A stretch of DNA of 64,000 nucleotides, from assembly GCF_963921235.1 (NCBI RefSeq), contig NC_086097.1:50346001-50410000 (forward strand), read 5' to 3'. Both the position numbers and the translations under genes were made by a program. Numbering within the stretch: the stretch's first letter is position 1; each line of letters begins with the position of its first letter. Of the stretch, positions 7,968 through 42,321 are shown piece after piece. The notes under the pieces were generated by a model that was not told the DNA's origin, did not search any database, and worked only from the letters and a program-made list of their open reading frames with translations. The DNA is from Mobula hypostoma (Eukaryota).

Positions 7968-8000
7968 CTGGAATAAAGAGGAAAAAGGAAAAATTGAATA
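7968..8000 (-). other. 3' splice acceptor of the coding exon
   Basis: Minus strand reads ...TTTTTCCTTTTTCCTCTTTATTCCAG|ATTCATG: strong polypyrimidine tract, CAG at 7970-7968, exon starting 4 nt before the ATG. Confidence 0.9.
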
Positions 8001-8089
8001 TTTTAATAATTTTTGGCTATTTTACAGCTCTGAAAGAAAACCATTACCAATATTGAACACATTTGATGTTTAAAAACTGAAACAATGAA

Positions 8090-10680
8090 GCTCAAGCTGG
8101 ATACAGACTCAGATTCACCTACCTTCCTTTAATTCATAACCCTTAATTCACCTAGTATGCAAAATCTATCTGCGTCTTAAAAGTACTTAATGAGGTAGTC
8201 TCCATTGCTTCCCTCGGAAGAGAATTCCACAGATTTATTGCCCTCAGGAAAAAGCAGCTTATCCTCATTTATGTCCTAGATCTAGTCCCCTGAATCTTAA
8301 GGCTATATGCCCTTGTTCTAGTCTCACTCACCAGTGGACACAACTTTCCTGCCTCATCTTTCTATCCCTTTCACAAGTTTATATGTTTCTAGAAGTTCCC
8401 CTCTCATTGTTCAGAATTCTAGTGTGTATAGTCTCAGATCACTCATTCTTTCCTCGCAAGTTAACCTCCTCAAATCTAGATTCAACCTGGTGACTCTTCT
8501 GTACTTTCTCCAAAAACAGGTTTTCTTCCTCAAGTAAGGAGATCAAAACTGCACACAGTACTCCAGGTGCAGCCTCACCAGTACCTTGTACAATTGCAGC
8601 ATAACCTCCCTGCTCTAAAATTCAAAACCTTTAGCAATTAATGCCAACATTTAATTTACCTTCTTGATGACTGTTGGACCTGCAAATCCTATTTGCCCAT
8701 GTACCTCTCTACTTTCTTGTAACCAAGTATCTCCCAAACATTTTCTAAACATTGTAGTTGTATCTGCTTCCACCATCTTCCTTGGAAACTTATTCCAGAT
8801 ATCCATCACCCCATGTGTGGGGGAAAAAATGCCCCTGACATTTATTCCAATCTCTTCCCATCTCATCTTAAACCTATGCCCTCTAGGTGTAAACGGCCCT
8901 ACTCCAGGAAAACAATTCTGACCATCAGAGCCCCTCAATTTTTTAAACTTCGTTAAGACAGAAGGTAGTGGTTGAAAGGTTTTATTTGAGCTAGAAGACT
9001 GCAATTAGTGGTATTCCTCAGGGGTCTGTGCTGGGAGCTCTGCTGTTTGTAGTGTATATGAATGACCTGGATGAATGTAAAATAGGTGGGTTAAGTAAGT
9101 TTATGGATGACACCAAGACTGACGAAGCTGTGGACAGTGTAGAAGATTGGCAAAGAATACAGTGCGATATAGATCAGTTGCAGATGGAGTTTAACCCAGA
9201 TAAATGTGAGGTATTGCACCTCAGTAGGGCAAATGCAAGGAGACAGTATACTGTTATGGGAAAGATCCTCAGTGTTGCTGAGCAGATACTATTAGATAGT
9301 TCCTTGTTCATAGCTCATTGAAGGTGGCTACACAGATCAATAAGGTGATTAAGAAGGCTTATGGAATGCTTGATTTTATTAGTTGAGGTATTGAGTTCAA
9401 AAGTCAAGAGGTTATGTTGCAACTTTATAAAACTCTGGTTAGGCCATATCTGGAGTACTGCATACAGTTCAGGTCGCTCCACTATAGGAAAGATGTTGAG
9501 GCTTTGCAGAGGCTGCAGAAAAGGTTTACCAGGATATTGTCAGGTTTAGAGGGCATGTGTTATCATGAGAGGCTGGATAAACTTAGGTCATTTTCTCTGA
9601 GTAGTGGAGGACAAGGGGAGATCTGATGGAGGTTTATAAGATTAGGAGAGGCATAGATAGAGTGACAGAGAGTATCTGTTTCCCAGAGTAGAAATGTCAA
9701 TACTAGAGGGCAAGCATTAGAGGTGGGGGAGTTCAAGGTGGATGTGAGGGGTGAGTGGTGGATGCCTGGAATGCACTGCCTGGTATGGTGGTAGACACAA
9801 ACACATCAGAGGTTTTTAAGAGATATTTGAATAGACACATGGATTCAAGGAAGACGGAGGGATAGTAGGTCGGAGGGATTAGTGTCTGGGTGTTTTTGAT
9901 TTGCTGTTTAGCTGGTTCAGCACAACACTGTGGGCCAAACAGCCTGTTCTTGTGCTGTACTGTTCCATAGTCCAAGTCATTCCACAGCCTCTGCTGTTCC
10001 AATGAGAAACAAATCCAGCTTATTTAAATCACTTATGACAACAGCCTTCCATTCCTAGCAACATCCTGGTTAATCTCTTCTGTATTCTGACTATTGCTTC
10101 CACTGTACTACATGTGTAGTGACTAGAACTATACATAATACTCTAAGAATGGTCCAACTAATGTTTTGTACAGCTGCAACATTATGTCCCAATTCAGTTA
10201 CATAGTGCCTTGCTCTATGAAAGCAAGTCCTCATTGCTCATCATCCTATCTTGCCATTTTCCATGCCCTTTGAATTTGCACCCCAAGATCCCTCTCCAAA
10301 TCAATGCTCCCAAGGTACCAGCCATTTACTCTGTCCTCTAAACCTGACAATATCCCTGTAAACCTTTTCTGCAGCCTCTCCAAAGCCTCAACATCTTTCC
10401 TACAGAGAGGCGACCAGAACTGTATGCAATACTCCAGGTGTGGCCTAACCAGAGATTGATAAATTTCAACATAACCTCTTAACTTTTGAACTCAATGCCT
10501 CAGAATTTGACCTCCCAATGTTTATTGCCTCACACTCATCTGGATTTAATTCAATCTTCATCACTCTGCAAAACATTGCTGTGTTGTATCCTTGGACAAC
10601 ACTCCTTGCTATCCAAGACTCCTGCAATTTTCATATCATCTATAAACAACTAATCCTTCTCATCCTAGCCATTTCTATAA
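8090..10680. mobile_element. Cluster of degenerate CR1 LINE fragments (minus ~8090-8950, plus ~8955-9970, minus ~9980-10680)
   Basis: ORF remnants YMNDLDE...SKFMDDTK, MLQLYKTLVRPYLEYCIQF and RGHRFKMR, plus CR1 3' tails. Confidence 0.85.
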
Positions 10681-12389
10681 TATGATAATATTCTGTAATA
10701 TGACTGATCCCAAATAGATGCTACAAACAAACTTTTCAAATGAGATTGTATCAACCAAATGTTTCACTAGTGAAACAGAGGCACAGGCAATAAATTAACC
10801 TATTGCATTGATCAATGATCAATTTGTGATAAGTCTGTTTTATATACAAAAACTGTATTTGTTGAATGATCCAAAAATTCTTAATTGGATAAGATTTCAC
10901 ACTTGCTTAGGTGGCAGTTCAAGAAAGAAAAAGTGTTCTAACCAAGGTGAGCCACAGCTAGCTGAAACAATTTACAATCAAGATGAAAAATGCACTCAAA
11001 ATGGAGTTAGCCCCTCAGAAGTGAAACTTAAGGTCAATTTTCCATTTAACTGAATTTCCATGTTACTAAATGCAAATCATTTCTAAGCCAATTTTCATCA
11101 CAGAACATATTTTTATCATTAATTATGTAGCATCACAGATTTTTTTTGCATTGGAGATATTACTTTAGAGTAGGAACCTAATAAAAGTTTTATTCACATT
11201 AGTTATCACAAATAAAGTTGTTTAAATCAACAAATAATCCCCATGTACACAAAATTTTAAAGTGCACTATCCATCTGCCTGCTGGATTCATAATGTCTAG
11301 ACCAATCAATTTCACAGAAACTTGAAGGAAGATTTAAATGGTGTCTATTAGCACCTTATGTGCATGTATATATTATATATATTTATTTTTATTTATTTTA
11401 TTAAATGATTTGAGGTCCATAAATGGGTACAGTTAACTGAGGCTCACCATGGTGATTAATTTGCTCTAGGGACCTGGCCAGTTCTGTGAACCAAGCTAGC
11501 TTTCAGCCTGATGATTTTGTTTTATAAAATCAATTTGCACTGGGTGCAATTTGCACTTAAATTATTCAAATCATTTACATTAGTTTGGCTGCCTTTGAGT
11601 CGATGGTGTTAGAGGAAAATTAGCAGAAAGCCTGGGAATGAGAGCCTAATATTAATGGCACACTTTAAAAAAGAGAAAGAATGATGACATTATTTCAACC
11701 CCCTGTCAATATAGCATTTGAAACACAGCTGAATCTAAAAGATTACTAGATGGATTCTAAACTGAACGTTGGTATTGGTTCTGGACAGTACAAAGGTGCA
11801 CCCAGCTCCTCGAAGACCCACTCAGAGTCACCCATACAAAATCCTCCTAAATGGGGATTTTGATCATTTAGGAAAGCCATCCCAGAATTCAGGAAATCCT
11901 ACATTTCATGTAATGTCCCAGGCTGCACCATGCTGATCCTTCCAGCAGCAGGGTAGACTGCCAGAGGCAGATGCACTACAGTACAGTTGGGAGAGAATGC
12001 AGAGGTACCTAGGTAGGTTATATCCCAAAGCAGAAACAAATCCAACGTACCACTTAGCACTGTATCAATCCATTCTCAGATTTCTGCTGAGTAATGCAAG
12101 ATCATTGACAGTGCTAGGCATTTACTTGAACAATAACCTCAGCAATTTCATTTCTCCTAAAACACTGTATTCCAGTCCTTACCGTGACCATTGAAAAAAA
12201 AAGACTAATTTCCTCAGAAGTGATTTAACAGCCTTAGCATTTAACCAAATATGGCCTGAAGGAAACCTCAAATTGTATAATTATGATTGTTAATCCCATT
12301 CAGGCCAGACCTAGGACACATACAAAATGCTGTATGCATAGCCATCCTTGGCTGAATCAAGGACCTTCTGTCTGAGAATGAGAAATGGG

Positions 12390-12892
12390 TAAATGAGTCC
12401 CTATTGGAGAGGGTGCAGAGGAGATTCCTGAGAATGATTCTGTCAATGAAAGGGTTAACATATGAGGAGTGTTTAATAGCTAGACTCACTGGAGCTTAGA
12501 AGAAAGAGCGGAGATCTCATTGAAACCTTTGGAATATTGAAAGATCTAGATACAGTGGATGTAGGAGGGATGTTTCCTACAGTGGGTGAGTCTTTGACCA
12601 GAAGGGGCAGCCTCAGAATAAAGGGACGTCCATTTAGAACAGAGATAAGGGGTTTCTTTAGCCAAAAGGTGGTGCATCTGTGGAATTCATTGCCACAGAC
12701 AGCTGTGGAAGCCATCATTGTGTATATTTAAAATGTAGGTTGGTAAGATTTTATTTACTCAGAGCAAAGGTTACAGGGAAATGGCCAGAGAATGAGGTTG
12801 AGAGGACTAATAAATCAGCCATGATGGAATGGTGGAGCAGGCTCAATGGGCCGAATGGTTTGAGTGCGCTCCTATGTCTTATGGTGTCATGG
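12390..12892 (+). mobile_element. CR1 3' fragment
   Basis: ORF 12537-12731 (RGSLRIKGRPFRTE...VHLWNSLPQ) and tail GGGCCGAATGG...CTCCTATGTCTTATGGT. Confidence 0.85.
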
Positions 12893-14306
12893 TCCTGTAT
12901 TCACTGACGACACTTAAATGAAACAGTTTGTATCAGCAAGCAGCACAACTCTAACATTCAGACTTGAGCTGGTGCACAATTTAGATACGTTATTTGCTGT
13001 AGAAATGTCAGACACTGACCATTTCCAGTAACAGACTACCATTATTCCTTGACATCAATCGCATAACTAACACTGGATGCTCCATCATTAACTTCCGAGC
13101 GTCAGTGCTGACAAGAAACTTGTCCAGAGTCAACCATGTTAAGGGCTCAATTCTTCCCCCGCAACAAATGAGTTACATTTGTACTCACAAATCTACATTC
13201 TGATATGTAAAGGCAAATTTTCAACTAGCTAGGATCAGTGCAACTCCAACATCAATCAAGAACTTCAACATTCTCCGTGCCAAATATGTCTACTAAACAG
13301 AATCCTCATCTGTCAATTCAACAAATAGCACACTTCTACCATATTACAGGGCAATTAGTGATCTCCAAAATAAATCGATCATACCAACAATTTCCAGATC
13401 CAATGAAATAATGAAAAAAAAATCTCAAACTCTAAATAAAATGTACTCCTTTACCACCTACAAGAAAAAATGTGTAAATGTTGTGCAATCAAACCAATAA
13501 ATAGTTGTCCTGGATTTAAAGATGGCTTGGCAAAATAAGACAGGGCAGCGGTGGAATGGGATTATTTTGACTGGAGGACTGTAACATCTGGTGTTCTGCA
13601 TGGATAGTGCCTGGACTTCTGTCAATTTTTGTCATCTGCAAGCTTACCAATCAGTTGTGGTCCAAACATTAGAGTTATGGATAGTGAGGAAGTCTCTCAA
13701 AGATACAATATTACACAGATGAGTGGAAAAATGGGCAGAAAAATGGCAGATGGAGTTGGAGGGTTATAGACCAACCATATGCCGGCAGATGGGGTTAATT
13801 TAAATTGGCATCAGAGTCCACACAGACATTACCGGCCAAAGTCCTGTTCCTGTACCGTCCTATGATCTATTTTCAAATGCTTCTCTTTGAGATAATACAC
13901 TGATGATTTTAGCAATATTCCTATACTAATAACCACCCTGCAAGTTGATAAAATTGACTTCAGACCCAATAACATAAATAGTACATGCAACTCTTCCCAA
14001 TGATGCTGCATCAATCTATCTGGTCTATTTGATTGTGGACTCTGATTAATGGTTCACGTCGGGCCCAGTTAAGCGTCTGCCCTAATTAGTCAAAATTTCA
14101 TGGAAGCAGTTAAAATGCAGTTTGTCTTTTTTAAAAAAATACCTCTTTAACTGAGTAACAAATTATGTATTTAAGATGAAATTCAGAACAAATCTGAACA
14201 CCATCAATACTATTACAGTACTAGAAAACACCATTAATTCCCAATAGTTATCAACAGAAGATTTGCACTGCATGCTCTTTCAGCTGTAAATGAACAAAAT
14301 CACACC

Positions 14307-14487
14307 TGGACACGAGGAAGTCTGCAGATGCTGGAATTTCAAGCAACACACATAAAAATTGCTGGTGAACACAGCTGGCCAGGCAGCATCTATAGGAAGA
14401 GGTACAGTCGACTAAGTTAGTCCTGACGAAGGGTCTGGGCCCGAAACGTCGACTGTACCTCTTCCTAGAGATGCTGCCTGGCCTTCT
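14307..14487 (+). mobile_element. Short palindromic Penelope-derived retroposon with hammerhead motif; 11-bp TSD
   Basis: Inverted arms GGCCAGGCAGCATCTATAGGAAGAGGTACAGTCGAC / GTCGACTGTACCTCTTCCTAGAGATGCTGCCTGGCC. TSD AAAATCACACC at 14296-14306 and 14488-14498. Confidence 0.8.
14419..14454 (+). ncRNA. Minimal type I hammerhead ribozyme motif
   Basis: AGUC-CUGACGA-A-GGGUCUGGGCCC-GAAA-CGUC-GACU. Both core boxes are intact, stem I is AGUC/GACU, stem II is GGGU/GCCC, stem III is the loopless palindrome ACGU. Predicted cleavage after GUC at 14450. Confidence 0.7.
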
Positions 14488-17400
14488 AAAATCACACCCA
14501 GTGTAGATAATGGACTGCCTTCATACAATTTTCAACATTGCATCCTCCAAATCTTAATTTTCATTGTAACATTTAAGATGATTATCAATACCTTCAAATT
14601 CTTTGTAGTTCCTAACTTGTTGAAGTAGTGAAATCATTTCATTTTCACTCACAGCTGTTTCTGGCATCTCCAAGCCTGAACACTTGAACCTGCACTGAGC
14701 AAAACTTTCTCCTTATTTCTCATCAACTATCAGTGACAAAAATCACTGCTTTTTGCACACTAATACATGCAACTTGCTATTTAAAAACTGTTCACTCTAA
14801 GCACAGTGTAGTGTCTAACGGCCACACAAGTGCACGCTAGTTAGAAACTTCTGCAAGTCTCCTGTCCCAACTTAGTGGCATAGTGTCTCAAATAAATGAA
14901 GGAAATCCCGTCCATTTTCTCAATTAGTTTTTGTCCCATTTTTGTTGTCAGTATGAGACTGCCCAATTAACTGATGGCCTAATTAACCGGAATCCACCGT
15001 ATACATTTCACACTTCAGTGTTAAATCTATATTGATTAGTAGAGTCTCTGAATTTAAAATTTTTTAACTTGCTGGGAAAATGAGTAAGTGAAGTAGAAAT
15101 TTAAAATTTCATTCTCTTTATTGCAAGTATTGCAACTTGGACAAAGCACCTGAACAAGCGTGGCTGCTGGACTTTCTGAACACAACCTCAGAATATTTTC
15201 ACAACATTTCTGTGCATCTTTTAAGTTAATTCCAATTCAAAATTAGTAACTTCTAACTTCATAGGTACTAATTACACAAATTATTTGTTCTGTATATAAA
15301 AATCGAGGCAGACACTTGTTAGACAACTTGATATTATTTCATCAGTATCAGAGGTTACTTTTTTGCCTTTCTAAATTTACAAATGTCATTTTATTCAAGT
15401 CAATACAGCTTCTTCCTCAAAAGCTCCCGCTTCTTGTGTTTATCACGTCGTTTTGTAATATCCAAGCAGGACAATTGCTACTCAGATTACTGTATGCCAT
15501 CACATCCACAGAGAATACAGTAAACAAAGAGGTCTGCCTGACTGAGCCCTTTTTAAAAGGTAAACCAGAATTTGCATTAATCTTGCTTTCACTGCTCTCT
15601 CCTTTTGGGTCGCTTCACTCTGTTTTTGCACAAAGTAGCAATACAACAAAAGGAAGTTTTTATTTTGCCATTAAAAATGTTACACAATAAAAGCTTACCT
15701 TGTTTCCAAAGTACCACAATTTCTATTTTCAAATCTGTGGAGTTAGGAGGACAGTACATTCTGAGCATTTCAGATGTAAATGGATTAGTCCTTAGTTGGT
15801 TTTTAAGATCAGTTTTTGTCTGCGAGCTAGGATTCTCACTTGCACAAACTGCCATGCAGCTGTCCTGGTTTTTTCAGACAGCTGACAAACAGCAACTGCA
15901 CAAGCACAATGACGCAGAACACTAAGCTGCCGTGGAAAGGAGTGGAGCTTGAAAAAAGTGGGTGGAGCTTTGTGGCTTGCAGTAGTGTCCATCCCCAGCT
16001 TGGCGAGCAGTCAAAGAACTGCCCAACAAGCTCACGGGGCCCCAACTGTGCTATTCCAGAAATGCTGACTGTGCCTCTACCATGTCCGCTTACGGCAGTT
16101 TGTTGAAGCATTATACAAGGCAACCCAATTGAATACTGTAAAAATATCACTAAAATAAAAGCACGAGTCAAAGCTACAGGGATTTAACAACTTATTTTGC
16201 AAGTGCTTCCCATTAAGGATGTTTCCATATTGGTTGAAAGCTTGAAGGCCTTTAAATATAGAGGGGGAGAAATTGGATAGTGCATTAAAAATTCTGCAGC
16301 ATTCATACTATACAATTAATCCATGCTTGTTTGATTCAATACACAAGAATCTGTGCCCCAACCTCATAGCCATGATAGCAAAATTCAGTCAACGTCTGTC
16401 ACACAGCTTATTGCATTAGCACTTATTCACAGACAGCAAATCTAGAAGTAACCCCAAGTTGCAGCTAGATCATGCAGAATGAGGCCATTCTGTCCATCGA
16501 AAGAGTGGGTGTGCATTGAAAATAGTTTCAAGTGTGTTCAGCTTCAGGAAGACTGCTGCAGGCCATAATCGCAGTACAACAAAAGTGTAGGTACACAATT
16601 TTTCAGCTGAAGCTTTAGCACCTCGATAGATGAGGAAGGCAGATTGCTCTTTCAGTTAGGACCAAGAGTGAAGCTCCCAGAATAGGGATATACTAGAAAA
16701 ATGTTTTAAATGACCTCACACATAGTTTAGAACAGTAAAGGCATCAATAAATCCCAGTTCTTTACAATCATAACTAATCTCAAAGCTGTTCCAATCAGTG
16801 GCCATGGAGCAGTGCATGAGATTAGAGATAGTTTGTAATTAAGCCCTCTCACCCAACAATCTCCACCATTAAATCATGCCTTCATTCATACTCCATCATA
16901 CCCTTAGATACATATATTCCACCCCCCCATCTCACACAACATTCAGAAAGGACAAAGATATAATTCAGAATATTGTAATGTACAATACTCACAAATTCAT
17001 AGCACTTCCTGAATGATCAGGTAGTATTCACTGACAGCATCGGTTAATGGCTAGTAGTCAATTCCACATCCATCAGTTCTAACTGATGGAGAAATGGTCA
17101 TCACTGAAGCAGCCACCCTGAAGTTAGTGATAGCCCAAACATCACAGAGGATGATTAAAGGGCTATTTCCAATCCATCTTTTTGATCCATTTCTTTTCTG
17201 TTTTATGACATTCAAATGGCATGAGAACACATCCTTTAGTGTCTCGTCTCATCTCATCGAGACCCTCCAGCACTGCCGTTCATATTTTACATAGTCCAGA
17301 ACTCCCAGCTCCCCATTTGCTGGTTACTGAGTCACAAGATAGTCAAACAACGAATTTAATCTCCAAAAATCTTATTGCTTTAAGAGGTGGGATCTGCAGT

Positions 17401-20247
17401 GAGGAACTGCTACAGGTAGACTGCAGCCAGAATAGGAAACCATAATCCAGTTCATCACTGAGAAGACGGAATGGAGAAGTCTAACAGCTTTCTTACACTG
17501 AGTTTGACAAACCCATCCTTTCCACCAGAAATGCTAACTTGCTATCCTCCATGAAATGGCACCAGTTGGCTGATGTTCCAAATCCCACTACAGCATGCTC
17601 AGTGCCTCGGTAATGAACACTCAGGCGGCCAAGATTATAGATCTGAATGCTAGTCTTCAAGTCAGTTTTCATGATGTTGCTCAGCAGAAGCTGAAACTCC
17701 GATGAAATCTATCTGAATTTTGACTGTCTAGGCCCAGAGTTATTATCTGCTCTTCACGTCAATCTGCCATAACCTCCAGTGCATGGCGAGCACTATCTCA
17801 GTGCAATAGGGCAAACAAAGACATCGTGGAAGGCGGCACCAAGGGCATACAGAAGAGTGACTGGAATAAAACCAGCAGATCCTGAAAAACTAAAACCAAA
17901 GAGAATCCTGGAAGCACTCAGAAGGTCAAGGAAGGTAAACAGAACCTATACCAGTTTTTCTGCAAACCCCATTCCTTCCACCTTCTGAAACATAAGCTTA
18001 CTACTTTTCTCACTTCGCCCATTCTGATGAAGGGCCCTAGACCTGAACTCCAGATATATAACCAAAGCCATTTGCTACACTGACTACTACTGTCCATCCA
18101 AGAGGAAGACAATGAATATCTCTCCCCCAGAGTAAAGTGCTGGCAATCAAACAAGAGGGCATACCCAACACCTCCTACAGCTGCCTGAAAGGAAACAAAG
18201 GTCAAGTAGTGGAGGCCCACTTTGACCTTTATTGCCACAACCTGAACAATCCTGGCATAACTATAGCTAAAGCTGTCGGCATTGTTGGAAAGGACTTGCA
18301 TCACCAGCCGCCTGCTCTCCATGCCAGGCCGTGGCTTGCAATGGAATTTTGTACTATATAATTTGCTGAGGAACACAAGTTTCCCTATAAATATGCACTC
18401 AAATCCACAAAGAGATCATCTGCAGAGCTGAAAAAGAAAATATCTCAACCCAATAAATCTCACCATATGCACTGCTTGACATATCAAAAAGCAAGTGAAT
18501 CACAAAGAATTAAGTAAAACACTGATTTTACACCATCACTTTCAGGGATCTTGCCTCTCATTCAACAGTCACTTATTGATCTATTGGGATTTTACATACT
18601 ACCTCTTCAAATCCAATAAATGAGCTGAACCAATTTGTACAGTCAGAAACAAGAGTAATTCAATATCAACCACATCTATCAATCGAAACACTAACTGATA
18701 CATGTATGCTTACCTATAGAAAACAGAGCTCAGAAAATCGACCAAGCCAACATCAGGTGTTGCCGTTTGCATGTGCTGTGCACGTTACATGCATTTTGAA
18801 TTATATTTTATTAACTTATTTGTGATAAATATTTATTTTATGTGCTGTGTGCGATACATGTATTGTGGGTGCACCGTGGTCCGGAGGAATATTGTTTCAT
18901 TTAGTCGTACATGAACAGTCAGATGACAATAAACTTAACTTATAAAACGTAAGTAATATAAAATAGTAACAAAAGGGTATTAACAGTTTTATTAATTATT
19001 TAGGAACACTCACTTGAAACTAAACTTCTAAATGCATTTAGAAAGATTTGCGGATACCTCAAAGCTAATCAAATATTTTCTGCTGCCTCATAGAAGATTT
19101 TTGAACTGATAATGGAGTTTTACATTTCTACAAATATATCTTTGAAGAAATTATGATAAAGTTCACACAACTAAAGGCATTTTACTACAGTTATCCTGGA
19201 CTAAAGGGACTTCTAGCCATACTTGCCTGGAATAGTAATGTAGCTTTGCAGGTCACCTGAGGTAAATTACTACTCCAGACAGAAAATGACAAAATATTCT
19301 TTTGTCATCCTATTGATTTCACCTTTTGTCCCGTTTGGCAAATATACATCTGAAAACTACCTAACCAATTTGAAATATATTCTCTCAATGCTCCAACCAT
19401 TTCTAAAATTAGCAATGTTTGCAATTACCAAAACATACATACTTAGAAATACAATTGTAATAGCATGGCTATAATTTCCAACACAAAATATTAACCAGGG
19501 CTGCCATAGCAGATAATGAAACTTTTGATCATGCAGAAAGCATACAGAGCGCACAGCTGACATCTATCCACATATGACACCCAACTTGTGGCTAGTTTGT
19601 GAAATCAAATACAGTGGATTCTGATTAATTAGGCTATCAGGGCAGCCACTTATTTGGGACAATACTTAAGGAACAAAAACTAATGGAGAAAATAGTTGGG
19701 ATTTGCTTAATTTGTTTGGGACACTATGCCACTTAATTGGGACAGAAGACTATTGCCAAACATTTTCTAACCAGCATCAGTTGCGTGCCCTCACTGTGCT
19801 TAAAGTGAACAGGTTCAGTAGTGGGTGCTCTTGTTCAATGAGCAGTGAATTTTGTCACTGATAGTTGGAGAGAAACATCAGCAAGACAATACAGAACTAC
19901 TTCCCCTCACTTCTGCTCCAACTATTCAGGCTCAGAGATGCCAAACATGGCTGTCAGTGAAAAATGAAACAATTTTGCTACTTCAACAAGTTAGGTACTA
20001 TGAAGAATAAAGGTTTCAACAATCATCTTGAATATTAAAATGACATGAAGATTTGAAGGATGCAATCATTGAAAGCATTGTACTAAGGCAGTCCATTATC
20101 TCCACTAGACGTCTGCACTGATTTTGTTCCTTTCAAAGAAGGGAACACGGTAGCACACACTGGATGAATTCCTCCGTCAATAACTAATACAGTTTTATAG
20201 TACTGCAACAGCATTAGTAGTGTTCTAATTTGTATTGGATTTCATTT

Positions 20248-20441
20248 GGGGTGTATGGGGTGTCAGGGAGCGGTAGCACCTCTGGTGGGGTAACATGTCG
20301 CGTCCTTTTCAAGGTGGTTAGTCCACCTTTGGTCCCCACCTGGCACTCAGCTCTCACCTGTGGCTCCCCGTAGCTGTTTGCATGTGACAGCGGACACACC
20401 CCAGGCAACGGCTTCGACAAGCCAGCTAAACCAGGTGAGGG
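20248..20441 (+). ncRNA. HDV-like (nested double pseudoknot) self-cleaving ribozyme; this copy carries two core substitutions
   Basis: P1 GGGGUGU(20248-54)/ACACCCC(20396-402); P2 CUCUCACCUG(20351-60)/CAGGUGAGGG(20432-41); P3 GGC(20362-64)/GAC(20393-95, mismatch); L3 starts UCC; AG-GCAA where GG-GCAA is expected; P4 GGCUU/AAGCC; J4/2 GCUAAA with candidate catalytic C20426. Confidence 0.75.
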
Positions 20442-20809
20442 TAGCCAACGGGTCTCAAACCCTTAGTGAGATAGGGAGTTGTCTATCCCAGCATGTGAAG
20501 ACAGACTCCAGCAGATTGAACGGACAAGACCAATGGAAGGTCCAGCAGTCAAGAAGGTGGTCTCTGCAAGCGTTGTGGAACATGTCGAGCAGGACAAGAC
20601 CCAGAGGTCGTCCTGGTCATCCACTGTGCCTAGTCCCATCTCCAGCCGTCTTGACTTTGTCTTGCCACTGGATCCAGATGGGAATTGGGAATAGAGAATG
20701 AGGCTGACGCTGCGCAACTCTCCCTCACTTAAATCCAAATCATACGCTAGTCTCGACACCATCATAATGGTGTCGAGATCCTCATCGACGTCGACGACGG
20801 ACAAACACT
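20248..20809 (+). mobile_element. Short non-coding RTE-derived retroposon (5' UTR joined to 3' end)
   Basis: GC-rich ~560-bp insert flanked by ATTTCATTT (20239-20247 and 20810-20818). RTE-type 3' end GAGGCTGACGCTGCGCAACTCTCCCTCACTTAAATCCAA with a 12-bp hairpin. No RT ORF. Confidence 0.8.
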
Positions 20810-22489
20810 ATTTCATTTAAATGCATAATTTGTTACTCAGTTAAACAGAAGTTTGTCTTTTTGTACCTTTTTGACCATTTCCATGAAACTTTGGTTAATT
20901 AGGGCAGCTGCTTAATTGGGCCAAATTGTATTGGTGTCAATGTGTCCCAATTAACCGGAATCCACCTGATGGATTTTTAATTTTTTTTTCCAGGAAGCCA
21001 GTTACTAATAGTTTTCTGAACAAAGTTCATGTGGGGGTGGAGTTCTAAAGCTACGATTTAAAATGCGTCACTGATTATGGGCACAGAATTGGAGCAAAGC
21101 TCAAATTTATTGGGGCTGAAGATCTTCCTTCAGAATTTTGCCAAGGAATTAGCACATGGTAGACTTTGCTTGCTGTCTAGATATGAATGTTTTAATACTT
21201 CAACCCACTGGGTCAGTGGTGGGTGTACTAGTAGAGGAATTGGGGCGGGGGGCAGGGAGGCAGAGACAGATCATCAGATGAAAGTAAATGGGGTACTACA
21301 TGAGGTATCATAGGTTCATCCTTAATGTGTGTGTATACCATGCCATACATTTAGATGATGAGGGCTTATGGTGTTACCTCTGTTTTTATCCCCCCAACAT
21401 CTAGTACCTGTATCAGAGAGTCACAGCAGGTTGCTTGTCCAATGAGATTCAGTAACCAAGTAACATCGGTAACCAACTTGCAATTATGAAGTTCCATACT
21501 CATCCAGCAAAGGCTGGCTTGATCAAAGAGCTCTTAGAGACCCTGGAGAAACTACATGACAGACATTGACTGAAGGCTCAGAGCAAGAATGGTAGGGCAC
21601 AGAAATGCACTTTTTGGCCTGCCATGCCCATGTAATCCTCTCTATCTGCACTGATCTCATTTGCCAGCAATAGGGCAGTATTCTTCTCTCCATCGAAGTG
21701 AAGTTCAGGTGGAGGTAGTGTACCAACCAGTAGAGCACATGAGAACAGTAAGGCCTATTCTCCAAACATTTAACTTAAATTCCCAGCTGAAATACTGCTA
21801 CATGTGACAACAAACAATTCATCCCTTTCCCTCATTATCTGTAGAGTGTACAATTCAGAAATCATAGCCTGTAAAGAAAGATCGTTTAGCCAGTCTCTCC
21901 CTACAGCACGTAAAGCTACTTTCTGAAGTACAGAAGTATGCAAAAACTTTATCCAGCCCCATCTGAACATGGAAGCGAGAATTGGCCCTCCTCTCTTGCT
22001 AGCAATGGTGTGGTGCTCACAGATGACAAATCTATTATTTTAGCCTCCATAAGGAAATGTATCACTGGGAGGCTGTACAGAGAAGATTCACTAGGTCAAT
22101 TCCCAGAAAGAATTAATTGTCATGTTAAGAAAGATTAATATGTTTGGTCATATACTCATTGCAAAATTCAAAACTAATCTTATTCAAAGATACAGGATTC
22201 TAAGGGAATTGGCAGGATGAACGATGACTTAATGGTTTCCCCCTAGTACAATTATCTAGATTTAGAGGACAAGCTTCAAAATAAGGGGTCACCTTACAGT
22301 AGAGATGTGGAGAAATCTCATCTGAGGTTTGTGGGAATTTCCTGTCCAAAGGGCTCTGGAGATAGGATCATTAAATATATTCAAGAGGTGGGCAGGCAAA
22401 GAGTGGATAAAGTAATGTTGAGGCCCAGACTGAAACATCCATAATCTTATCAAGAAAAAGAGCATACTTGGATAACTTGGACCCACTTC

Positions 22490-23620
22490 AAGATCTGCAT
22501 ACCACCACAACTGGTGAACAGCAGATGCCATTTCTCTGGCTCTTCACTCTGTTCTGAACCATCTGAACAACAGGAACTTGTACAACAGGTTGCTGTTCAT
22601 CAACTCCAACGTGGCATTCAACACAATCATTCCACACAAATTCATCATCCAGCTTCAAGGCTTCCTCATCAGCAGAGCTCAATGAGGATGGGTAACATCT
22701 CCTCCTCACAGGTACACCTGAAGGGTATGTGCTTAGCCCTCTGCACTACTCTCTATACATACAACTGTGTAGCTATATACAGCTCAAGATCCCATACACA
22801 AATTCATGGACTACACCACTATTCGTGGACGAATTACAAATAGTGATGAGTCAGCATACCGGGGCGAGATAGTACACTCAGTCAAGTAGTGCCACCACAG
22901 CAACAATTAATTGTTGACTTCAAGAAGCAGGAGGACGGCAAACATGCATCAGTCTATATTGGGAAATTGGCAGTGGAGAGTCAACAGCTTTAAACCCCCT
23001 GGGTATTAATATATTGGATGACCTGTCTTGGGCACAGCACATAGACACAACCACAAGGAAGGCACCCCAGGGTCTGCTTAAGAACATTTGCTTGTCACCA
23101 AACACTAAACAATGTATAGAATTACCATTGAAATGTTTTAGTACAGTCATTCAAATCTGTAGGAATTCAAGAAGCTAGAGTATTGGCTTAACTCAACACA
23201 TCATGGGCACATCCCTCACCACCATTGTTAGTATCTACAGGAGGAACTCCCTTAAGAAAGAAACACCCAAAGATTCCCAACATTTGGGCCATGCCATTTT
23301 CCCGCAGCTAATATCAGGCAGGAGGTAAAGAAGCCTAAAGTTCCACACCACCAGATTTTAAGAACGGTTACTTCCCTTCAGCCATTTGATTCTTGAAGCA
23401 ACCAGCACAGGCCTAATCTCTAGAGTTTAGCAACATTATGACTGCTCTAATATTTGTACTAAAATGTCCTTTTGTTCCAACTGTATTATTTCTTGTAAAA
23501 ACTAAACAAATCGAACACACTTGCGAAAGTTGCTTATAATGTGCTATGACAATGATGCAAGAAAGATTGTCATTACACTTGTTCATGTATGTACTGATAC
23601 ATATCATAATAAACTCTAAC
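22490..23620 (+). mobile_element. Degenerate Rex1/Babar-type LINE 3' portion
   Basis: Remnants of ISLALHSVL.HL, AFNTIIP, VERVNSFK.LG and DDLSW..H..TT.KA motifs, ending in an AATAAACTCTAACTC tail. Confidence 0.65.
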
Positions 23621-23676
23621 TCCAAAGGGCCAACTGCTACTAATATGCTGTGCCTCGTCTTTTTCCTCTCACAGCA

Positions 23677-23904
23677 TGCAACACACACAAAATGCTGGAG
23701 GAACTCAGCAGGCCAGGCAGCATCAATGGAAAAGAGTACAGTCAATGTTTCGGGCCAAGACCCTTCGGAAGAACTTCAAAGGGTCTCAGCCCAAAACGTC
23801 AACTGCACACTTTTCCATAGATGCTGCCTGGCCTGCTGAGATCCCCCACCATTTTGTGTGTGTTGCTTAGATTTCCAACATCTGCAGATTTTCACTTGTT
23901 TGTG
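23677..23904 (-). mobile_element. Palindromic Penelope-derived retroposon (degenerate hammerhead cores)
   Basis: About 95-bp inverted arms GCAACACACACAAAATGCTGGAGGAACTCAGCAGGCCAGGCAGCATC.../...GATGCTGCCTGGCCTGCTGAG...TTTTGTGTGTGTTGC, plus the asymmetric CATCTGCAGATTTTC extension. Confidence 0.8.
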
Positions 23905-24439
23905 ATTGAATTTCCAATCAGACCATGCCTTGCTTCTTTGTAAAGTACTTCAGGCAGAAGCAGCAAAGTAGTTTCCCAGCATGGAACAGCTGAAGCCATT
24001 TTATGACTTCCTTTCTATCAAACTTTTGTTTCATGACAGAGAAGATGTAGGAATAAAATACTCACTGAAATCTGATGGCTGTGAAGGCCAGATTTAAAAT
24101 TGAAAATTGTCAGAAATAAGGAGTCTTATAGATGTCCTTGGCAATCCCTGATGGAACCCTGTGCAAACAAGCTATTACAGCTGGAGTCTGAATGTCTAAC
24201 TGTAACTCTTGTTACTAGTGTCAGCAACAACACAAGTATACCACAAAGCACAAAAGGCTGCTTTTAAAAATAATTAGCACAGAATAAATTATGCAAAATC
24301 CCAATTATTTCAGGGCAGATTAGGGCAGATTATCTTCTCCAAACATCCACACTGCAATGAATAGTAACATGTGTAAGAAAGTGCACCAAAACTTTAGGCT
24401 TCATATATGGAAATCTCAGAAAATAAAAGGGCTGCATTT

Positions 24440-24840
24440 TGTAGTGTAATCAATATTTAAGTAATATGTAAATATAAAGTTTGATTTAGCATTCTTTGTT
24501 GATTACATAATTTATTATGGGGTTATATGTGAAAGTACGTGAATGGCCAATGCTATTTCTTCACCACATCATGTGTGAGCGCCTCACTAAAGAAAAAGTA
24601 GAGCAGAGCATCAACCCGGCTTCTGTGTTTTTCTTTTGTTTAATTCCTGGAGTTACAAAACAGTACTGAGTAAGTTTTAAAACGAACCTGAGACGACTAC
24701 CTACCTGTAGCACAGCATGCGGTTCCTCAGAAGGGGAGAGAGACGGTTGAGTTTAAAAAAGAAAGACAGAAATTGGACAGAAGCTGAAGACCAGGTTGCC
24801 CTGGCTCTCAATGTTACCAGCATGACATGATTGTTAACAG
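24440..24840 (+). mobile_element. Possible LTR remnant with adjacent internal leader
   Basis: TGTAGTG...GTTACAAAACA (TG..CA, about 220 bp) followed by leader-like sequence. No partner LTR or clean PBS. Confidence 0.35.
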
Positions 24841-25169
24841 TAAGGAAGACAAGAAGCATCCCAAAATCTCAAGACTGGAAGATTATAGGCTATGGCCTCT
24901 AGTTCTTGTCTCACCCAACCTGAGGAAGAAAAAAAACCTGCATTCACCCATCTATACCCATCATCCTATCATTATCCCTCATAAAAGCATATACCCGGTA
25001 AGATCTCCCTCCTTCTCCTGCACTCCAGAGAATAAAGTTCTAACCTATTCAACATGTCCCTATAACTCAGGTAGTCAAGCCCCAGCAACATCACTCTAAT
25101 TTAAAGCTAATTGATGTCCTTCCTGTAAGTAGTGACCAGACTGCACAAAAAAACTCCGAATTCCACCTT

Positions 25170-25260
25170 ACCAACATCAACTGTTTATTCTCTTCGACAG
25201 ATGCTGCCTGACTTGCCAAGTTCCCTCTTGTGTGTTGCTCAAGATTTCCAGCATCAGCAG
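25170..25260 (-). mobile_element. Partial Penelope-derived palindromic element, target of the young CR1
   Basis: CAGATGCTGCCTGACTTGC...TGTGTGTTGCTCAAGATTTCCAGCATCAGCAG. The sequence resumes after the CR1 at 28537 (GCAGAACCTCCTGC). Confidence 0.65.
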
Positions 25261-25361
25261 AACATAGAAACATAGAAACATAGAAAATAGGTGCAGGAGT
25301 AGGCCATTCGGCCCTTCGAGCCTGCACCGCCATTTATTATGATCATGGCTGATCATCCAAC

Positions 25362-27455
25362 TCAGAACCCAGCCTTCCCTCCATACCCCCTGACCCCTGT
25401 AGCCACAAGGGCCATATCTAACTTCCTTTTAAACATAGCTAATGAACTGGCCTCAACAGTTTGCTGTGGCAGAGAATTCCACAGATTCACCACTCTCTGT
25501 GTGAAGAAGTTTTTCCTAACCTCGGTCCTAAAAGGCTTCCCCTCTATCCTCAAACTGTGACCCCTCGTTCTAGACCTCCCCAACATCGGGAACAATCTTC
25601 CCGCATCTAGCCTGTCCAATCCCTTTAGGATCTTATACGTTTCAATCAGATCCCCCCTCAATCTTCTAAATTCCAATGAGTACAAGCCCAGTTCATCCAG
25701 TCTTTCTTCATATGAAAGACCTGCCATCCCAGGAATCAATCTGGTGAACCTTCTTTGTACTCCCTCTATGGCAAAGATGTCTTTCCTCAGATTAGGGGAC
25801 CAAAACTGCACACAATACTCCAGGTGTGGTCTCACCAAGGCCTTGTACAACTGCAGTAGTACCTCCCTGCTCCTGTACTCGAATCCTCTCGCTATAAATG
25901 CCAGCATACCGTTCGCCTTTTTCACCGCCTGCTGTACCTGCATGCCCACTTTCAATGACTGGTGTATAATGACACCCAGGTCTCGTTGCACCTCCCCTTT
26001 TCCTAATCGGCCACCATTCAGATAATAATCTGTTTTCCTATTTTTGCCACCAAAGCGGATAACTTCACATTTATCCACATTAAATTGCATCTGCCATGAG
26101 TTTGCCCACTCACCCAACCTATCCAAGTCACCCTGCATCCTCTTAGCATCCTCCTCACTGCTAACACTGCCACCCAGCTTTGTGTCATCCGCAAACTTGG
26201 AGATGCTGCATTTAATTCCCTCATCCAAGTCATTAATATATATTGTAAACAACTGGGGTCCCAGCACTGAGCCTTGCGGTACCCCACTAGTCACCGCCTG
26301 CCATTCTGAATAGGTCCCATTTATTCCCACTCTTTGCTTCCTGTCTGCTAACCAATTCTCCACCCACACCAATACCTTACCCCCAATACCGTGTGCTTTA
26401 AGTTTGCACACTAATCTCCTGTGTGGGACCTTGTCAAAAGCCTTTTGAAAATCCAAATATACCACATCCACTGGTTCTCCCCTATCCACTCTACTAGTTA
26501 CATCCTCAAAAAATTCTATGAGATTCGTCAGACATGATTTTCCTTTCACAAATCCATGCTGACTTTGTCCGATCATTTCACCGCTTTCCAAATGTGCTGT
26601 TATCACATCCTTGATAACTGACTCTAGCAGTTTCCCCACCACTGACGTTAGGCTAACCGGCCTATAATTCCCCGGTTTCTCTCTCCCTCCTTTTTTAAAA
26701 AGTGGGGTTACATTAGCCACCCTCCAATCCTCAGGAACTAGTCCAGAATCTAACGAGTTTTGAAAAATTATCACTAATGCATCCACTATTTCTTGGGCCA
26801 CTTCCTTAAGCACTCTGGGATGCAGACCATCTGGCCCTGGGGATTTATCTGCCTTCAATCCCTTCAATTTACCTAACACCACTTCCCTACTAACATGTAT
26901 TTCGCTCAGTTCCTCCATCTCACTGGACCCTCTGTCCCTTACTATTTCTGGAAGATTATTTATGTCCTCCTTAGTGAAGACAGAACCAAAGTAATTATTC
27001 AATTGGTCTGCCATGTCCTTGCTCCCCATAATCAATTCACCTGTTTCTGTTTGCAGGGGACCTACATTTGTCTTTATCAGTCTTTTCCTTTTTACATATC
27101 TATAAAAGCTTTTACAGTCCGTTTTTATGTTCTCTGCCAGTTTTCTCTCATAATCTTTTTTCCCCTTCCTAATTAAGCCCTTTGTCCTCCTCTGCTGAAC
27201 TCTGAATTTCTCCCAGTCCTCAGGTGAGCCACTTTCTCTGGCTAATTTGTATGCTACTTCTTTGGAATTGATACTATCCCTAATTTCTCTTGTCAGCCAC
27301 GGGTGCACTACCTTCCTTGATTTATTCTTTTGCCAAACTGGGATGAACAATTGTTGTAGTTCATCCATGCAACCTTTAAATGCCTGCCATTGCATATCCA
27401 CCGTCAATCCTTGAAGTGTCATTTGCCAGTCTATCTTAGCTAATTCACGTCTCAT
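25362..27455 (-). CDS. CR1 ORF2 reverse transcriptase part (697 aa)
   Basis: KSPGPDG, NYRPVSLTS, QHGF, YLDFQKAFDKV, GVPQGSVLGP and FADD motifs. Confidence 0.9.
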   Translation of the reverse strand: MRRELAKIDWQMTLQGLTVDMQWQAFKGCMDELQQLFIPVWQKNKSRKVVHPWLTREIRDSINSKEVAYKLARESGSPEDWEKFRVQQRRTKGLIRKGKKDYERKLAENIKTDCKSFYRYVKRKRLIKTNVGPLQTETGELIMGSKDMADQLNNYFGSVFTKEDINNLPEIVRDRGSSEMEELSEIHVSREVVLGKLKGLKADKSPGPDGLHPRVLKEVAQEIVDALVIIFQNSLDSGLVPEDWRVANVTPLFKKGGREKPGNYRPVSLTSVVGKLLESVIKDVITAHLESGEMIGQSQHGFVKGKSCLTNLIEFFEDVTSRVDRGEPVDVVYLDFQKAFDKVPHRRLVCKLKAHGIGGKVLVWVENWLADRKQRVGINGTYSEWQAVTSGVPQGSVLGPQLFTIYINDLDEGIKCSISKFADDTKLGGSVSSEEDAKRMQGDLDRLGEWANSWQMQFNVDKCEVIRFGGKNRKTDYYLNGGRLGKGEVQRDLGVIIHQSLKVGMQVQQAVKKANGMLAFIARGFEYRSREVLLQLYKALVRPHLEYCVQFWSPNLRKDIFAIEGVQRRFTRLIPGMAGLSYEERLDELGLYSLEFRRLRGDLIETYKILKGLDRLDAGRLFPMLGRSRTRGHSLRIEGKPFRTEVRKNFFTQRVVNLWNSLPQQTVEASSLAMFKRKLDMALVATGVRGYGGKAGF

Positions 27456-27465
27456 ACCTTCAAAG

Positions 27466-28362
27466 TTACCCCTCTTTTAAGTTCAGAACCTTTGTTTCTG
27501 AATTAACTACGTCACTCTCCATGTTAATGAAGAATTCCACCATATTATGGTCACTCTTACCCAAGGGGCCTCTCACGACAAGATCGCTAATTAACCCTTC
27601 CTCATTGCTCAAAACCCAGTCCAGAATAGCCTGCTCTCTAGTCGGTTCCTCGACATGTTGGTTCAAAAAACCATCCCGCATACATTCCAAGAAATCCTCT
27701 TCCTCAGCACCTTTACCAATTTGGTTCACCCAGTCTACATGTAGATTGAAGTCACCCATTATAACTGCTGTTCCTTTATTGCACACATTTCTAATTTCCT
27801 GTTTAATACCATCTCCGACCTCACTACTACTGTTAGGTGGCCTGTACACAACTCCCACCAGCGTCTTCTGCCCCTTAGTGTTACGCAGCTCTACCCATAT
27901 CGATTCCACATCTTCCCGGCTTATGTCCTTCCTTTCTATTGCGTTAATCTCTTTTTTAACCAGCAACGCCACCCCACCTCCCCTTCCTTCATGTCTATCC
28001 CTCCTGAATATTGAATATCCCTGAACGGTGAGCTCCCATCCCTGGTCACCCTGGAGCCATGTCTCTGTGATCCCAACTATATCATAATCATTAATAACAA
28101 TCTGCATTTTCAATTCATCCACCTTATTACGAATGCTCCTTGCATTGACACATAAAGCCTTCAGGCGCTCTTTTACAACTCTCTTAGCCCTTTTTAATGC
28201 TTGCCCTGGATTTGTCGGCCTGCCACTTTTACTTTTCCCCTTTGTACTTTTTGCTTCTACGCTCACTTTACACCCCTCTGTCTCTCTGCACTGGTTCCCA
28301 TCCCTCTGTTGTGAACTAACCTCCTCACACCTAGCCGCTTTAATTTGATTCCCACCCCCCAA
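27466..28362 (-). CDS. CR1 ORF2 apurinic-like endonuclease part (frameshifted from the RT part)
   Basis: NARS, ITETW, GGGVAL, VYRPP, GDFN, LDWVL and SDH motifs. One extra T in CCTCTTTTAA (~27475-78) relative to copy 2. Confidence 0.88.
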   Translation of the reverse strand: MGGGNQIKAARCEEVSSQQRDGNQCRETEGCKVSVEAKSTKGKSKSGRPTNPGQALKRAKRVVKERLKALCVNARSIRNKVDELKMQIVINDYDIVGITETWLQGDQGWELTVQGYSIFRRDRHEGRGGGVALLVKKEINAIERKDISREDVESIWVELRNTKGQKTLVGVVYRPPNSSSEVGDGIKQEIRNVCNKGTAVIMGDFNLHVDWVNQIGKGAEEEDFLECMRDGFLNQHVEEPTREQAILDWVLSNEEGLISDLVVRGPLGKSDHNMVEFFINMESDVVNSETKVLNLKEG

Positions 28363-33375: not shown

Positions 33376-33735
33376 CACCTCACAGAGGTACATAAAACCA
33401 TGATGGCATAGGGTGAATGCGTGCTCACTTTCTCCCAGGGAAAGGGAATCAAAGCCAAGCGGGCATAGGTTTAAGGCGAGAGAAGGAAGATTTAAAAGAA
33501 CCCAAGGGGGCAACTGCTTCAAGCAGAGGCTGATGCCAGTTTGGAATGAGCTGCTGGAGGAAGTGGTTGAGGCAGGTACAGTAACATTTAAAAGACACTT
33601 GGACAGACACATGGATAGGAAGGCTTAGAGAGATATGGGCTAAACACAGGTAAAGGGGTTAGCTTAGATGACATTTTGGTTGGGTTTTACAAGTTAGGCT
33701 AAAGGCTTGGTTCTGTGCTGTAATTTTCTAGGACT
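33376..33735 (+). mobile_element. CR1 3' fragment
   Basis: GHRFKAREGRFKR...WNELLEEVVEAG..FKRHLDRHM. Confidence 0.8.
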
Positions 33736-42284: not shown

Positions 42285-42321
42285 TGGACACTTTTTATGT
42301 TGGTGCTCCCGCCCACAGAGA

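Follow-up and report, generated by a model that had tools for sequence, protein, structure and literature searches.

Head-to-head truncated ends of a probable Penelope-like element carrying a minimal hammerhead motif in a ray genome

Introduction

Metazoan Penelope-like elements (PLEs) harbor minimal type I hammerhead ribozymes in their pseudo-LTRs (pLTRs), as described by Cervera and De la Pena in 2014 (PMC4209133). In the portion of that study covered here, these ribozymes share with the ray motif analyzed below the absence of helix III, a palindromic 15.2-16.2 segment, an extra base at 9/10.1, a G10.1-C11.1 pair, and a helix I of 4-5 bp. They are mostly found as single motifs in truncated copies, with some close opposite-strand pairs, and the ray copy is likewise of this kind. 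Helix II differs, since it comprises 4 bp and a 4-nt loop in the ray motif versus 7-8 bp in the Schistosoma families. Neither the covered text of PMC4209133 nor the two supplementary files that were searched names a cartilaginous fish.

Inverted pLTR insertions have also been reported. In the sections covered (PMC3846280, PMC8557442), they combine a head-to-head arrangement, a palindromic junction, a tail on one arm, and microhomology-mediated deletions, as do the ray copies. Their target site duplications (TSDs) are also of similar size, 8-10 bp versus 11-14 bp in the ray. They differ from the ray copy in that both arms of the latter are truncated to the hammerhead, leaving no ORF, and in that its deletion takes out precisely the ribozyme core in one of the two arms. 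An optional tail of 30-40 bp at one end is typical of PLEs in the parts of these two studies and of PMC11167929 that were covered. The latter study, on the Poseidon element PAc of Anolis carolinensis (Frangieh et al. 2024), describes in its covered text two 3' ends located one tail length apart downstream of the hammerhead, as in the ray. According to the same text, the PAc hammerhead cuts only with the protein of the element and is dispensable for insertion in vitro; its stem II begins with an ATG, which the ray motif lacks.

Animal non-LTR retrozymes, as presented in the covered parts of PMC7229834 and bioRxiv 10.64898/2026.07.22.740005, resemble the ray copy in being non-coding, in carrying a type I hammerhead, in being related to PLE pLTRs, and in generating TSDs longer than 4 bp. 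They are head-to-tail tandem repeats yielding circular RNA, whereas the ray copy comprises only one inverted pair, whose sole minimal hammerhead cannot release a monomer. PLE minimal hammerheads and inverted truncated PLE copies are kinds of sequence that have already been published, and the insertion described here matters little by itself, as one more truncated PLE end of a kind described in 2014.

Results

Structure of the insertion

The segment 14296..14498 of the window, by which we mean the whole 64-kb stretch of DNA analyzed, comprises two 5'-truncated 3' ends joined head to head, which belong to a family of very high copy number, very probably a PLE. It interrupts an older high-copy host repeat (14062..15012), for which contig depth reached about 1.5e5 over 14515-14760. 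The 11-bp TSD announced in the preliminary description was recovered as two perfect copies of AAAATCACACC, at 14296..14306 and 14488..14498. Two further copies of the host repeat (46102-46868 and 20245-19598) provided empty paralogous sites, aligning unbroken through the insertion point. Joints corresponding to the empty site also occur among contigs of organism A, indicating that they derive from other copies of the host repeat. Among the contigs listed for the related organisms B and C, none spans the insertion site. Three bases, TGG (14307..14309), separate the left TSD copy from the element and represent either filler or the decayed remainder of a TSD that was once 14 bp long; family alignments and contig loose ends both begin at 14310.

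The long arm (14310..14415, minus strand) is a PLE-type 3' end minus the 28-nt hammerhead core. It extends over 100 nt between the equivalent of the cut site and its end, stops ~6 nt short of the family end as set from contig loose ends, and is identical at 91 of 100 positions to the long arm of a sister copy at 57554-57790. The optional tail occupies 14310..14343 (minus strand), a segment missing from the short arms of two sister copies, and contig joints and one loose end fall at its boundary (14341-14342). The arms meet at the fold-back turn GACTAA-G-TTAGTC (14410..14422, centered on 14416). The short arm (14416..14487, plus strand) represents the same 3' end once more, again truncated on its 5' side; it contains the intact hammerhead and matches the 57554 copy at 65 of 69 positions. 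It stops 37 nt past the cut site, leaving an asymmetry of 63 nt between the two ends; in contigs, the family sequence runs on past 14484. Relative to the right arm, the left arm is missing exactly 28 nt, corresponding to the hammerhead core. Because a GTC repeat flanks the core, this gap has four equivalent placements, from 14420-47 through 14423-50.

Sister copies in the window

The window contained five fragments of the family, including four besides the insertion at 14296..14498, and their turning points differed. The copy at 57554..57790, inserted in a CR1-type LINE, is a near-complete head-to-head palindrome with a TSD of 14 bp (57541/57785). A decayed head-to-head palindrome of a second subfamily was found at 23675..23905, a single arm beginning at C3 of a decayed core at 49395..49525 (minus strand), and a short decayed fragment at 25177..25261 (plus strand). 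TSDs were not detected for two of the four copies tested (23675..23905 and 49395..49525). Head-to-head pairs accounted for three of the five fragments, with turn points and end points that varied among all three. In two of these hairpin copies, at 57554..57790 and 23675..23905, the tail (34-40 nt and 38 nt, respectively) is confined to one of the arms. The ends of the sister copies lie 66-72 nt or 104-106 nt past the cut site. At the opposite extremity, all four core-bearing insertions start within about 8 nt of C3, a clustering tighter than predicted for random truncation according to a rough estimate. Features that run against an origin from PLE ends include the short arm of the 14296..14498 copy, which ends 37 nt past the cut and is thus shorter than both common family ends, and the clustering at C3, which this origin does not fully explain.

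The hammerhead motif

Inspection of positions 14419-14454 (plus strand) confirmed the complete minimal type I core claimed in the preliminary description, including the extra A and the palindromic ACGT. The 5' strand of stem I, AGTC (14419-22), is followed by CTGACGA (14423-29), the extra A (14430), stem II (GGGT, 14431-34, paired to GCCC, 14439-42, with the loop CTGG), GAA (14443-45), and the palindrome ACGT (14446-49), which provides A15.1, C15.2, G16.2, and U16.1. The motif ends with C17 (14450), after which cleavage is predicted, and the 3' strand of stem I, GACT (14451-54). The CUGANGA and GAAA-UH core elements and helices I and II are therefore present and helix III is absent. The assignment to the PLE type was also borne out, as all four traits listed for PLE minimal hammerheads in the covered text of PMC4209133 are present so far as one copy shows, among them the extra base after position 9 (A14430), G10.1-C11.1 (G14431-C14442), and the palindromic 15.2-16.2 segment (ACGT, 14446-49). 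Position 14437 of loop II is a G in this copy versus a C in most contigs of the family.

Scanning with a minimal-hammerhead descriptor located this site alone in the 64-kb window, and each of the 200 dinucleotide shuffles was devoid of hits. Covariance models, proposed earlier as a check, did not detect the motif: the six Rfam matches obtained up to E = 10 included no hammerhead and consisted only of hairpin-driven miRNA and IRES models below the gathering score. Such hairpins may be mistaken for miRNA precursors or for miniature inverted-repeat transposable elements (MITEs). No compensatory change in the helices was detected among the eight arms present in the window. For the isolated motif, nearest-neighbor energies, which exclude tertiary terms, were -17.9 kcal/mol for the active double hammerhead versus -28.2 kcal/mol for two misfolded monomers. 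By analogy with other PLEs, the hammerhead of the full-length parent was probably a weak ribozyme assisted by dimerization or by a protein.

Pairing of the ribozyme and orientation in the host gene

The arms 14377-412 and 14448-83 are complementary at 35 of 36 positions and form a 36-bp inverted repeat with a 35-nt spacer (14377..14483), for which a folding energy of -81 kcal/mol was calculated (z -12.4). The preliminary description considered that the deletion in the left arm left the core unsequestered. This holds for CUGACGA, stem II, and GAAAC, which are located in the hairpin loop, but not for G16.2, U16.1, C17, and the entire 3' strand of stem I, which are located in the long helix. The predicted pairing partners of 14448-14454 sit in the left arm with probabilities of 0.991-1.0, and the probability of stem I was 0.0 for any plus-strand RNA starting at or before 14400. 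According to this model, the left arm would hold the 3' strand of stem I, together with the cleavage triplet, in the 36-bp helix, thereby blocking the ribozyme fold.

Based on the annotation of a relative, the insertion is located in an intron (7968..41362, minus strand) of a CDCA4-like (SERTA-domain) gene. The Mobula birostris isoform P0004 aligns with the minus strand at 41555-41363 and again from 7969 on, and the intron has GT and AG ends. The intact hammerhead, on the plus strand, is antisense to the CDCA4-like pre-mRNA, and the core-less strand is the transcribed sense strand. The notion that the deletion frees the ribozyme was abandoned, since the scissile bond still lies in the 36-bp duplex; in addition, the host pre-mRNA corresponds to the other strand. 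Because the core is trapped in a helix and antisense to the intron, the hammerhead of this copy is most likely inert. Run X11, taken by guess to be RNA, covers the repeat but not its unique flanks, and is thus uninformative about expression of the locus.

Relationship to public loci with the same core

The same core was present in 123 public loci, 42 of which contain a PLE-like (RT/GIY-YIG-like) ORF upstream on the same strand. No such ORF was found downstream on the same strand (0 of 123), and two loci had one on the opposite strand only. Pfam analysis of 17 of these ORFs revealed GIY-YIG in six, of which three reached or exceeded the curated cut-off; RVT_1 was matched in two, weakly. Covariation was observed in stem I, the first three pairs being formed in 26 of 44 distinct combinations versus a mean of 6.9 and a maximum of 14 in the shuffle control. 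The public loci belong to families other than that of the ray: blastn revealed no similarity between them and the ray arms outside the searched core, and the link is consequently limited to the type of motif.

No RT or GIY-YIG ORF tied to the ray family was found in the window or by tblastn and three peptide searches. Specifically, GIY-YIG had no match in 123 window ORFs, two PLE ORFs had no tblastn match in the window, and scanning the window for PLE amino-acid motifs revealed nothing convincing. The first peptide search, for a fusion to a PLE ORF, had no match at E ≤ 0.01 among two candidates. The second gave four matches, comprising two host-gene fusions and two repetitive chance matches, and the third gave one, a CBFA2T1 isoform from Hemitrygon whose end is derived from the element. 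The exact ray-core pattern had no match in metagenome, viral, or prokaryote collections, nor had a relaxed pattern in viral contigs. No PLE pLTR matching the ray family was found in the supplementary files searched, and no paper describing this family was found, although repeat databases or preprint supplements may already contain it.

Origin of the insertion and alternative explanations

The insertion is very probably a dead-on-arrival product of an endonuclease-bearing PLE, consisting of head-to-head truncated ends in which the hammerhead is trapped. In the proposed scenario, the GIY-YIG nuclease of the element would make an 11-nt staggered cut in the target, and reverse transcription would begin close to the RNA's 3' end and halt a few bases beyond the hammerhead. 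The new strand would fold back at the GACTAA-G-TTAGTC hairpin and be copied into an inverted arm. Slippage between the GTC/GAC words flanking the core would remove 28 nt from one arm, either during this copying or later, as repair of an unstable perfect palindrome. In this scenario, the hammerhead is intact because the copy is young rather than because of selection.

A different origin of the deletion would involve ribozyme activity, the short-core arm being the cDNA of the 3' cleavage product joined to the cDNA of uncut RNA, with reverse transcription running off an RNA whose 5' end is the cut site. This is unlikely. One of the four gap placements, 14423-14450, ends exactly at C17, and in vitro the Anolis PLE protein is able to cleave and to extend each of the two target strands (covered text of PMC11167929). 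However, the GTC repeat on either side of the core follows from the symmetry of stem I itself, so that the coincidence is built in, and this scheme still requires the GACTAA-G-TTAGTC fold-back and a blunt join. The other three core-bearing insertions of the window begin close to C3, which lies 28 nt upstream of the cut, and the contigs listed displayed neither a pile-up of ends nor a loose end at 14409 or 14451. In the Anolis study, no RNA-seq reads were found to terminate at the cut site (covered text of PMC11167929).

The preliminary description favored a non-autonomous, retrozyme-like family mobilized by a PLE RT. Such a separate family, retrozyme- or SINE-like, some 140-200 nt in length and both transcribed and mobilized as a unit, is improbable, and the preliminary description is not followed on this point. 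The 5' ends do cluster at the 5' edge of the hammerhead, as a defined short transcript would give, none of the five short window fragments extends upstream of the hammerhead region, the corresponding family sequence being absent from the window, no ORF was linked to the family by the searches described above, and PLE-derived retrozymes are known in a chondrichthyan (covered part of bioRxiv 10.64898/2026.07.22.740005). Against this possibility, the window contains one intact motif and neither tandem same-strand hammerheads nor a tandem array, whereas animal retrozymes are tandem repeats with mostly canonical hammerheads (covered text of PMC7229834). Turns and ends also vary from copy to copy, contig joints are varied, and hundreds of contigs extend upstream with a common sequence. 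In run X1, loose ends were present before 14415 in 134 contigs and before 14419 in 393, indicating that copies continue 5' of the turn; this upstream DNA was seen only as 30-nt loose ends. Other family copies retain the core where the left arm has lost it (89 contigs behind 14412).

Deletion of the core by selection, the core-less arm being sense to the host pre-mRNA, was also considered, but slippage in the palindrome accounts for this one deletion without selection. Finally, a MITE or other DNA transposon with the arms as terminal inverted repeats is barely credible despite the strong hairpin and the location in an older high-copy repeat, since the arms form an internal inverted repeat, the two ends differ in length (100 versus 37 nt from the cut site), the TSD length varies (11 and 14 bp), and single-arm copies exist. 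The TSD and the empty paralogous sites uphold the earlier view that the insertion was retroposed.

Abundance of the family and possible imprint of the ribozyme

Summed contig depth, which is not a copy number, was 2.1-6.6 million on the element versus about 8 on the unique flanks (run X1), and 1.1-6.0 million on the element in two related organisms. As a young family whose copies number in the range of 10^5, the ray family could matter more than the single copy: it would allow insertion ends at the cut site to be counted and compared with ends at other short repeats, and could thereby bear on what PLE hammerheads do in vivo.

Conceivably, the hammerhead shapes the insertions of the family, cuts in the germ line and a 3' splice site, placed at the 5' edge of helix I, setting the ends and fold-backs of reverse transcription. 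We regard this as a doubtful proposal. If the proposal were true, the short ray copies, in their hundreds of thousands, would form a countable fossil record of in vivo cleavage by PLE ribozymes, the short-core arm of 14296..14498 being one such record. Hints in its favor are that the 28-nt gap can be placed so as to end exactly at C17, that the turn falls on the boundary between a pyrimidine tract and CAG (14415-14417), which is present in both subfamilies, and that a predicted host protein, P0006, enters the frame of the element at the CAG boundary.

Structure of the hammerhead-bearing insertion

The element consists of one sequence present twice, head to head, with its 3' ends outward. Of the two arms, the long one (14310-14415) is in minus sense and ends 100 nt past the cut-site equivalent; the short one (14416-14487) carries the hammerhead and ends 37 nt past the cut. 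The fold-back turns within a short hairpin (GACTAA-G-TTAGTC) that has its centre at 14416. Exactly 28 nt are missing from the long arm. Because GTC is present at either end of the core, this gap has four possible placements, one of which extends from C3 to C17, the cut site.

The motif (14419-14454, plus strand) comprises stem I (AGTC at 14419-14422 with GACT at 14451-14454), CTGACGA (14423-14429), an extra A (14430), stem II (14431-14434 with 14439-14442), GAA followed by the palindrome ACGT (14446-14449), and C17 (14450). Every landmark was found where the preliminary description had placed it, and the motif was the sole match to a minimal-hammerhead descriptor in the window, with none in 200/200 shuffles. 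An Rfam scan gave no match of any hammerhead model to the element, its six matches being hairpin artefacts below the gathering score. The minus strand of the element is devoid of CUGANGA. Between the arms, 35 of 36 positions are identical, and the motif retains four CpGs versus two or three in a sister copy. Judged from these sequence features, the intactness of the core needs no selection to be explained.

The 11-bp target-site duplication (TSD; 14296-14306 and 14488-14498) claimed previously is a perfect duplication on both sides of the insertion. The target was an older high-copy host repeat (14062-15012), possibly a non-autonomous Tc1/mariner-type DNA element. Two further copies in the window (19598-20245 and 46102-46868) align through the insertion site, with the element absent. 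Relative to these paralogues, a short deletion is common to both TSD copies. Thus, the TSD is younger than the decay of the host repeat.

Link to Penelope-like elements

A relaxed core pattern, from which stem I was left out, retrieved at least 123 public loci, 41 with short flanks only. An ORF resembling those of Penelope-like elements (PLEs) was located upstream on the motif's strand in 42 of the 123 listed loci (including the loci of both tblastn queries used below), mostly 67-180 nt before C3. Such an ORF was located downstream on this strand in 0/123 and on the opposite strand only in 2/123. Pfam searches of 17 selected ORFs detected GIY-YIG in six (three scoring no lower than the curated cut-off) and a weak RVT_1 in two; one of the 17 was an unrelated ferredoxin-like chance locus. 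Among the 44 distinct flank combinations from the listed loci, stem I was paired in 26, versus 6.9 after shuffling. Head-to-head pairs were present in 7/123 listed loci; three turn 12-16 nt upstream of C3, although two of these look like one insertion. In the available text, Cervera and De la Pena set out the traits of PLE minimal hammerheads and mention that truncated copies carry single motifs and that pairs occur close together on opposite strands (PMC4209133).

GIY-YIG was found in none of 123 window ORFs, two PLE ORFs gave no tblastn match to the window, and peptide searches for an ORF of the ray family returned only host-gene fusions or nothing. The ray arms had no blastn match to the listed public loci outside the core, so the comparison gives the motif type, not the family. 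Public loci with the same core appear to tie the ray element to PLEs, by evidence that is indirect but strong.

At one public locus (L003:1005-3663), a PLE-like insertion contains an RT/GIY-YIG frame of 595 residues, followed 132 nt downstream by a hammerhead; 130 nt of its 3' end recur in inverted orientation on the 5' side, which makes it a long form of the window arrangement. Three others (L121, L122, and L123) harbor the animal PLE-type core on contigs filed under bacterial genome assemblies, with a GIY-YIG ORF upstream of the core in L122 and L123; they are probably contaminating host DNA.

Sister copies and abundance

Four further family fragments were found within the window. One is a near-complete palindrome (57554-57790) that lies in a CR1-type LINE and has a 14-bp TSD; another (23675-23905), of a second subfamily, is a palindrome too, but decayed. 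The other two are a single arm at 49395-49525 and a scrap at 25177-25261. TSDs could not be found around the 23675-23905 and 49395-49525 insertions. In the two sister palindromes, arms end 66-72 nt versus 104-106 nt past the cut site. This difference of 34-40 nt matches the optional 30-40-bp tail of PLEs mentioned in the accessible parts of PMC8557442, PMC3846280, and PMC11167929. Both arms of the 23675-23905 palindrome start with non-consensus CTTC(C) ahead of GAAGGG, forming a nested small palindrome (23755-23795), which suggests from sequence that one arm served as the template for the other. A decayed hammerhead-like core at about 51190-51225 (minus strand) apparently belongs to another, older family.

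Contigs of sequencing run X1 gave a summed depth of 2.1-6.6 million on the element versus about 8 on unique flanks, and two related organisms gave 1.1-6.0 million; summed depth is not copy number, but points to one of the order of 10^5. Among the best-supported X1 contigs with loose ends, 134 share a pyrimidine-rich sequence before 14415 and 393 share another sequence before 14419, indicating that many copies run on 5' without folding back. Among the best-supported contigs, 89 retain the core where the long arm lacks it, and the arm-to-arm joints listed fall at many differing positions. A literature search, which did not reach repeat databases, one PMC4209133 supplement, or preprint supplements, retrieved no paper on the ray family.

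Origin of the insertion

The structure, TSD, abundance, and variable turns of the element were established directly. Target-primed reverse transcription would have begun near the RNA 3' end, halted just beyond the hammerhead, and continued by fold-back copying at the small hairpin; slippage between GTC words, at insertion or afterwards, would have dropped the core from one arm. In the text available, Arkhipova and colleagues interpret palindromes found where PLEs are joined in inverted orientation as signs of self-priming, and they also describe deletions at microhomologies. Alternatively, the long arm might be a copy of ribozyme-cut RNA, as the coincidence of gap and cut site could imply; this is improbable because the coincidence is inherent in the symmetry of stem I.

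Under fold-back copying, the hammerhead's own stems may favour snap-back near C3. All four core-bearing insertions of the window start at most about 8 nt from C3, a clustering unlikely under a uniform model (rough estimate, n = 4). In both subfamilies, a pyrimidine tract and CAG resembling a 3' splice site directly precede helix I (14415-14417; loose ends), and the turn of the 14307-14487 copy falls on the tract/CAG boundary. This arrangement recalls the Drosophila virilis Penelope, whose intron ends at helix I according to the available text of PMC4209133.

Predicted state of the ribozyme

The left-arm deletion had been proposed to leave the core unsequestered. Folding of the whole plus-strand RNA contradicts this proposal: 14448-14454 paired with the left arm (P 0.991-1.0), and the probability of stem I was 0.0, rising to just 0.13-0.21 even for RNA starting past the left arm. 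The isolated motif favoured a rod in which core GACG pairs with CGUC. By nearest-neighbour energies, the active double hammerhead lies about 10 kcal/mol above two rod monomers. This penalty agrees with the low activity of PLE minimal hammerhead dimers (PMC4209133) and with the finding that the Anolis hammerhead depends on protein (PMC11167929), as far as the accessible text of both goes. No tandem hammerhead partner was found near the element. The initial reading holds in part: for a PLE-type hammerhead, the same core occurring downstream of PLE-like ORFs, but not for a freed ribozyme. The element adds a new member to an already known kind and, on these models, is most likely inert.

Host gene and neighbouring sequences

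The 90% cluster of a SERTA-domain protein encoded in the window includes named Mobula birostris CDCA4-like proteins, which places the host among rays near Mobula. One named isoform has its N-terminus at 41555-41363 (minus strand), joined to a coding exon at 7967 (minus strand) with GT/AG ends. By this relative's annotation, the insertion is located in a CDCA4-like intron, with its intact hammerhead in antisense orientation relative to the host transcript. The upstream coding exons (41555-41493 and 41395-41363, minus strand) lie inside and just beside a frame (41443-43023) without Pfam match, which by its look we take to be a decayed LTR-retrotransposon gag/protease region; they are possibly an exonised mobile element. 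A CpG-island-like region (52001-54000; CpG observed/expected 0.97-1.07) is a candidate promoter of the gene.

Translated pieces of the element were present in three predicted host proteins: a MENTAL-domain protein, an unnamed protein, and a Hemitrygon akajei CBFA2T1 isoform (P0005, P0006, and P0010). The unnamed protein, P0006, enters the element at the CAG boundary that corresponds to 14416/14417. Exonisation or mis-annotation may thus be frequent in the ray family.

Two short frames (38459-38848 and 55960-56352), without Pfam match, resemble Tc1-like transposase pieces. Two LINE copies, which we take to be CR1-type (25280-28060 and 58633-61418), are 98% identical; in the latter, a frame of 902 residues is open and includes endonuclease and RT domains.
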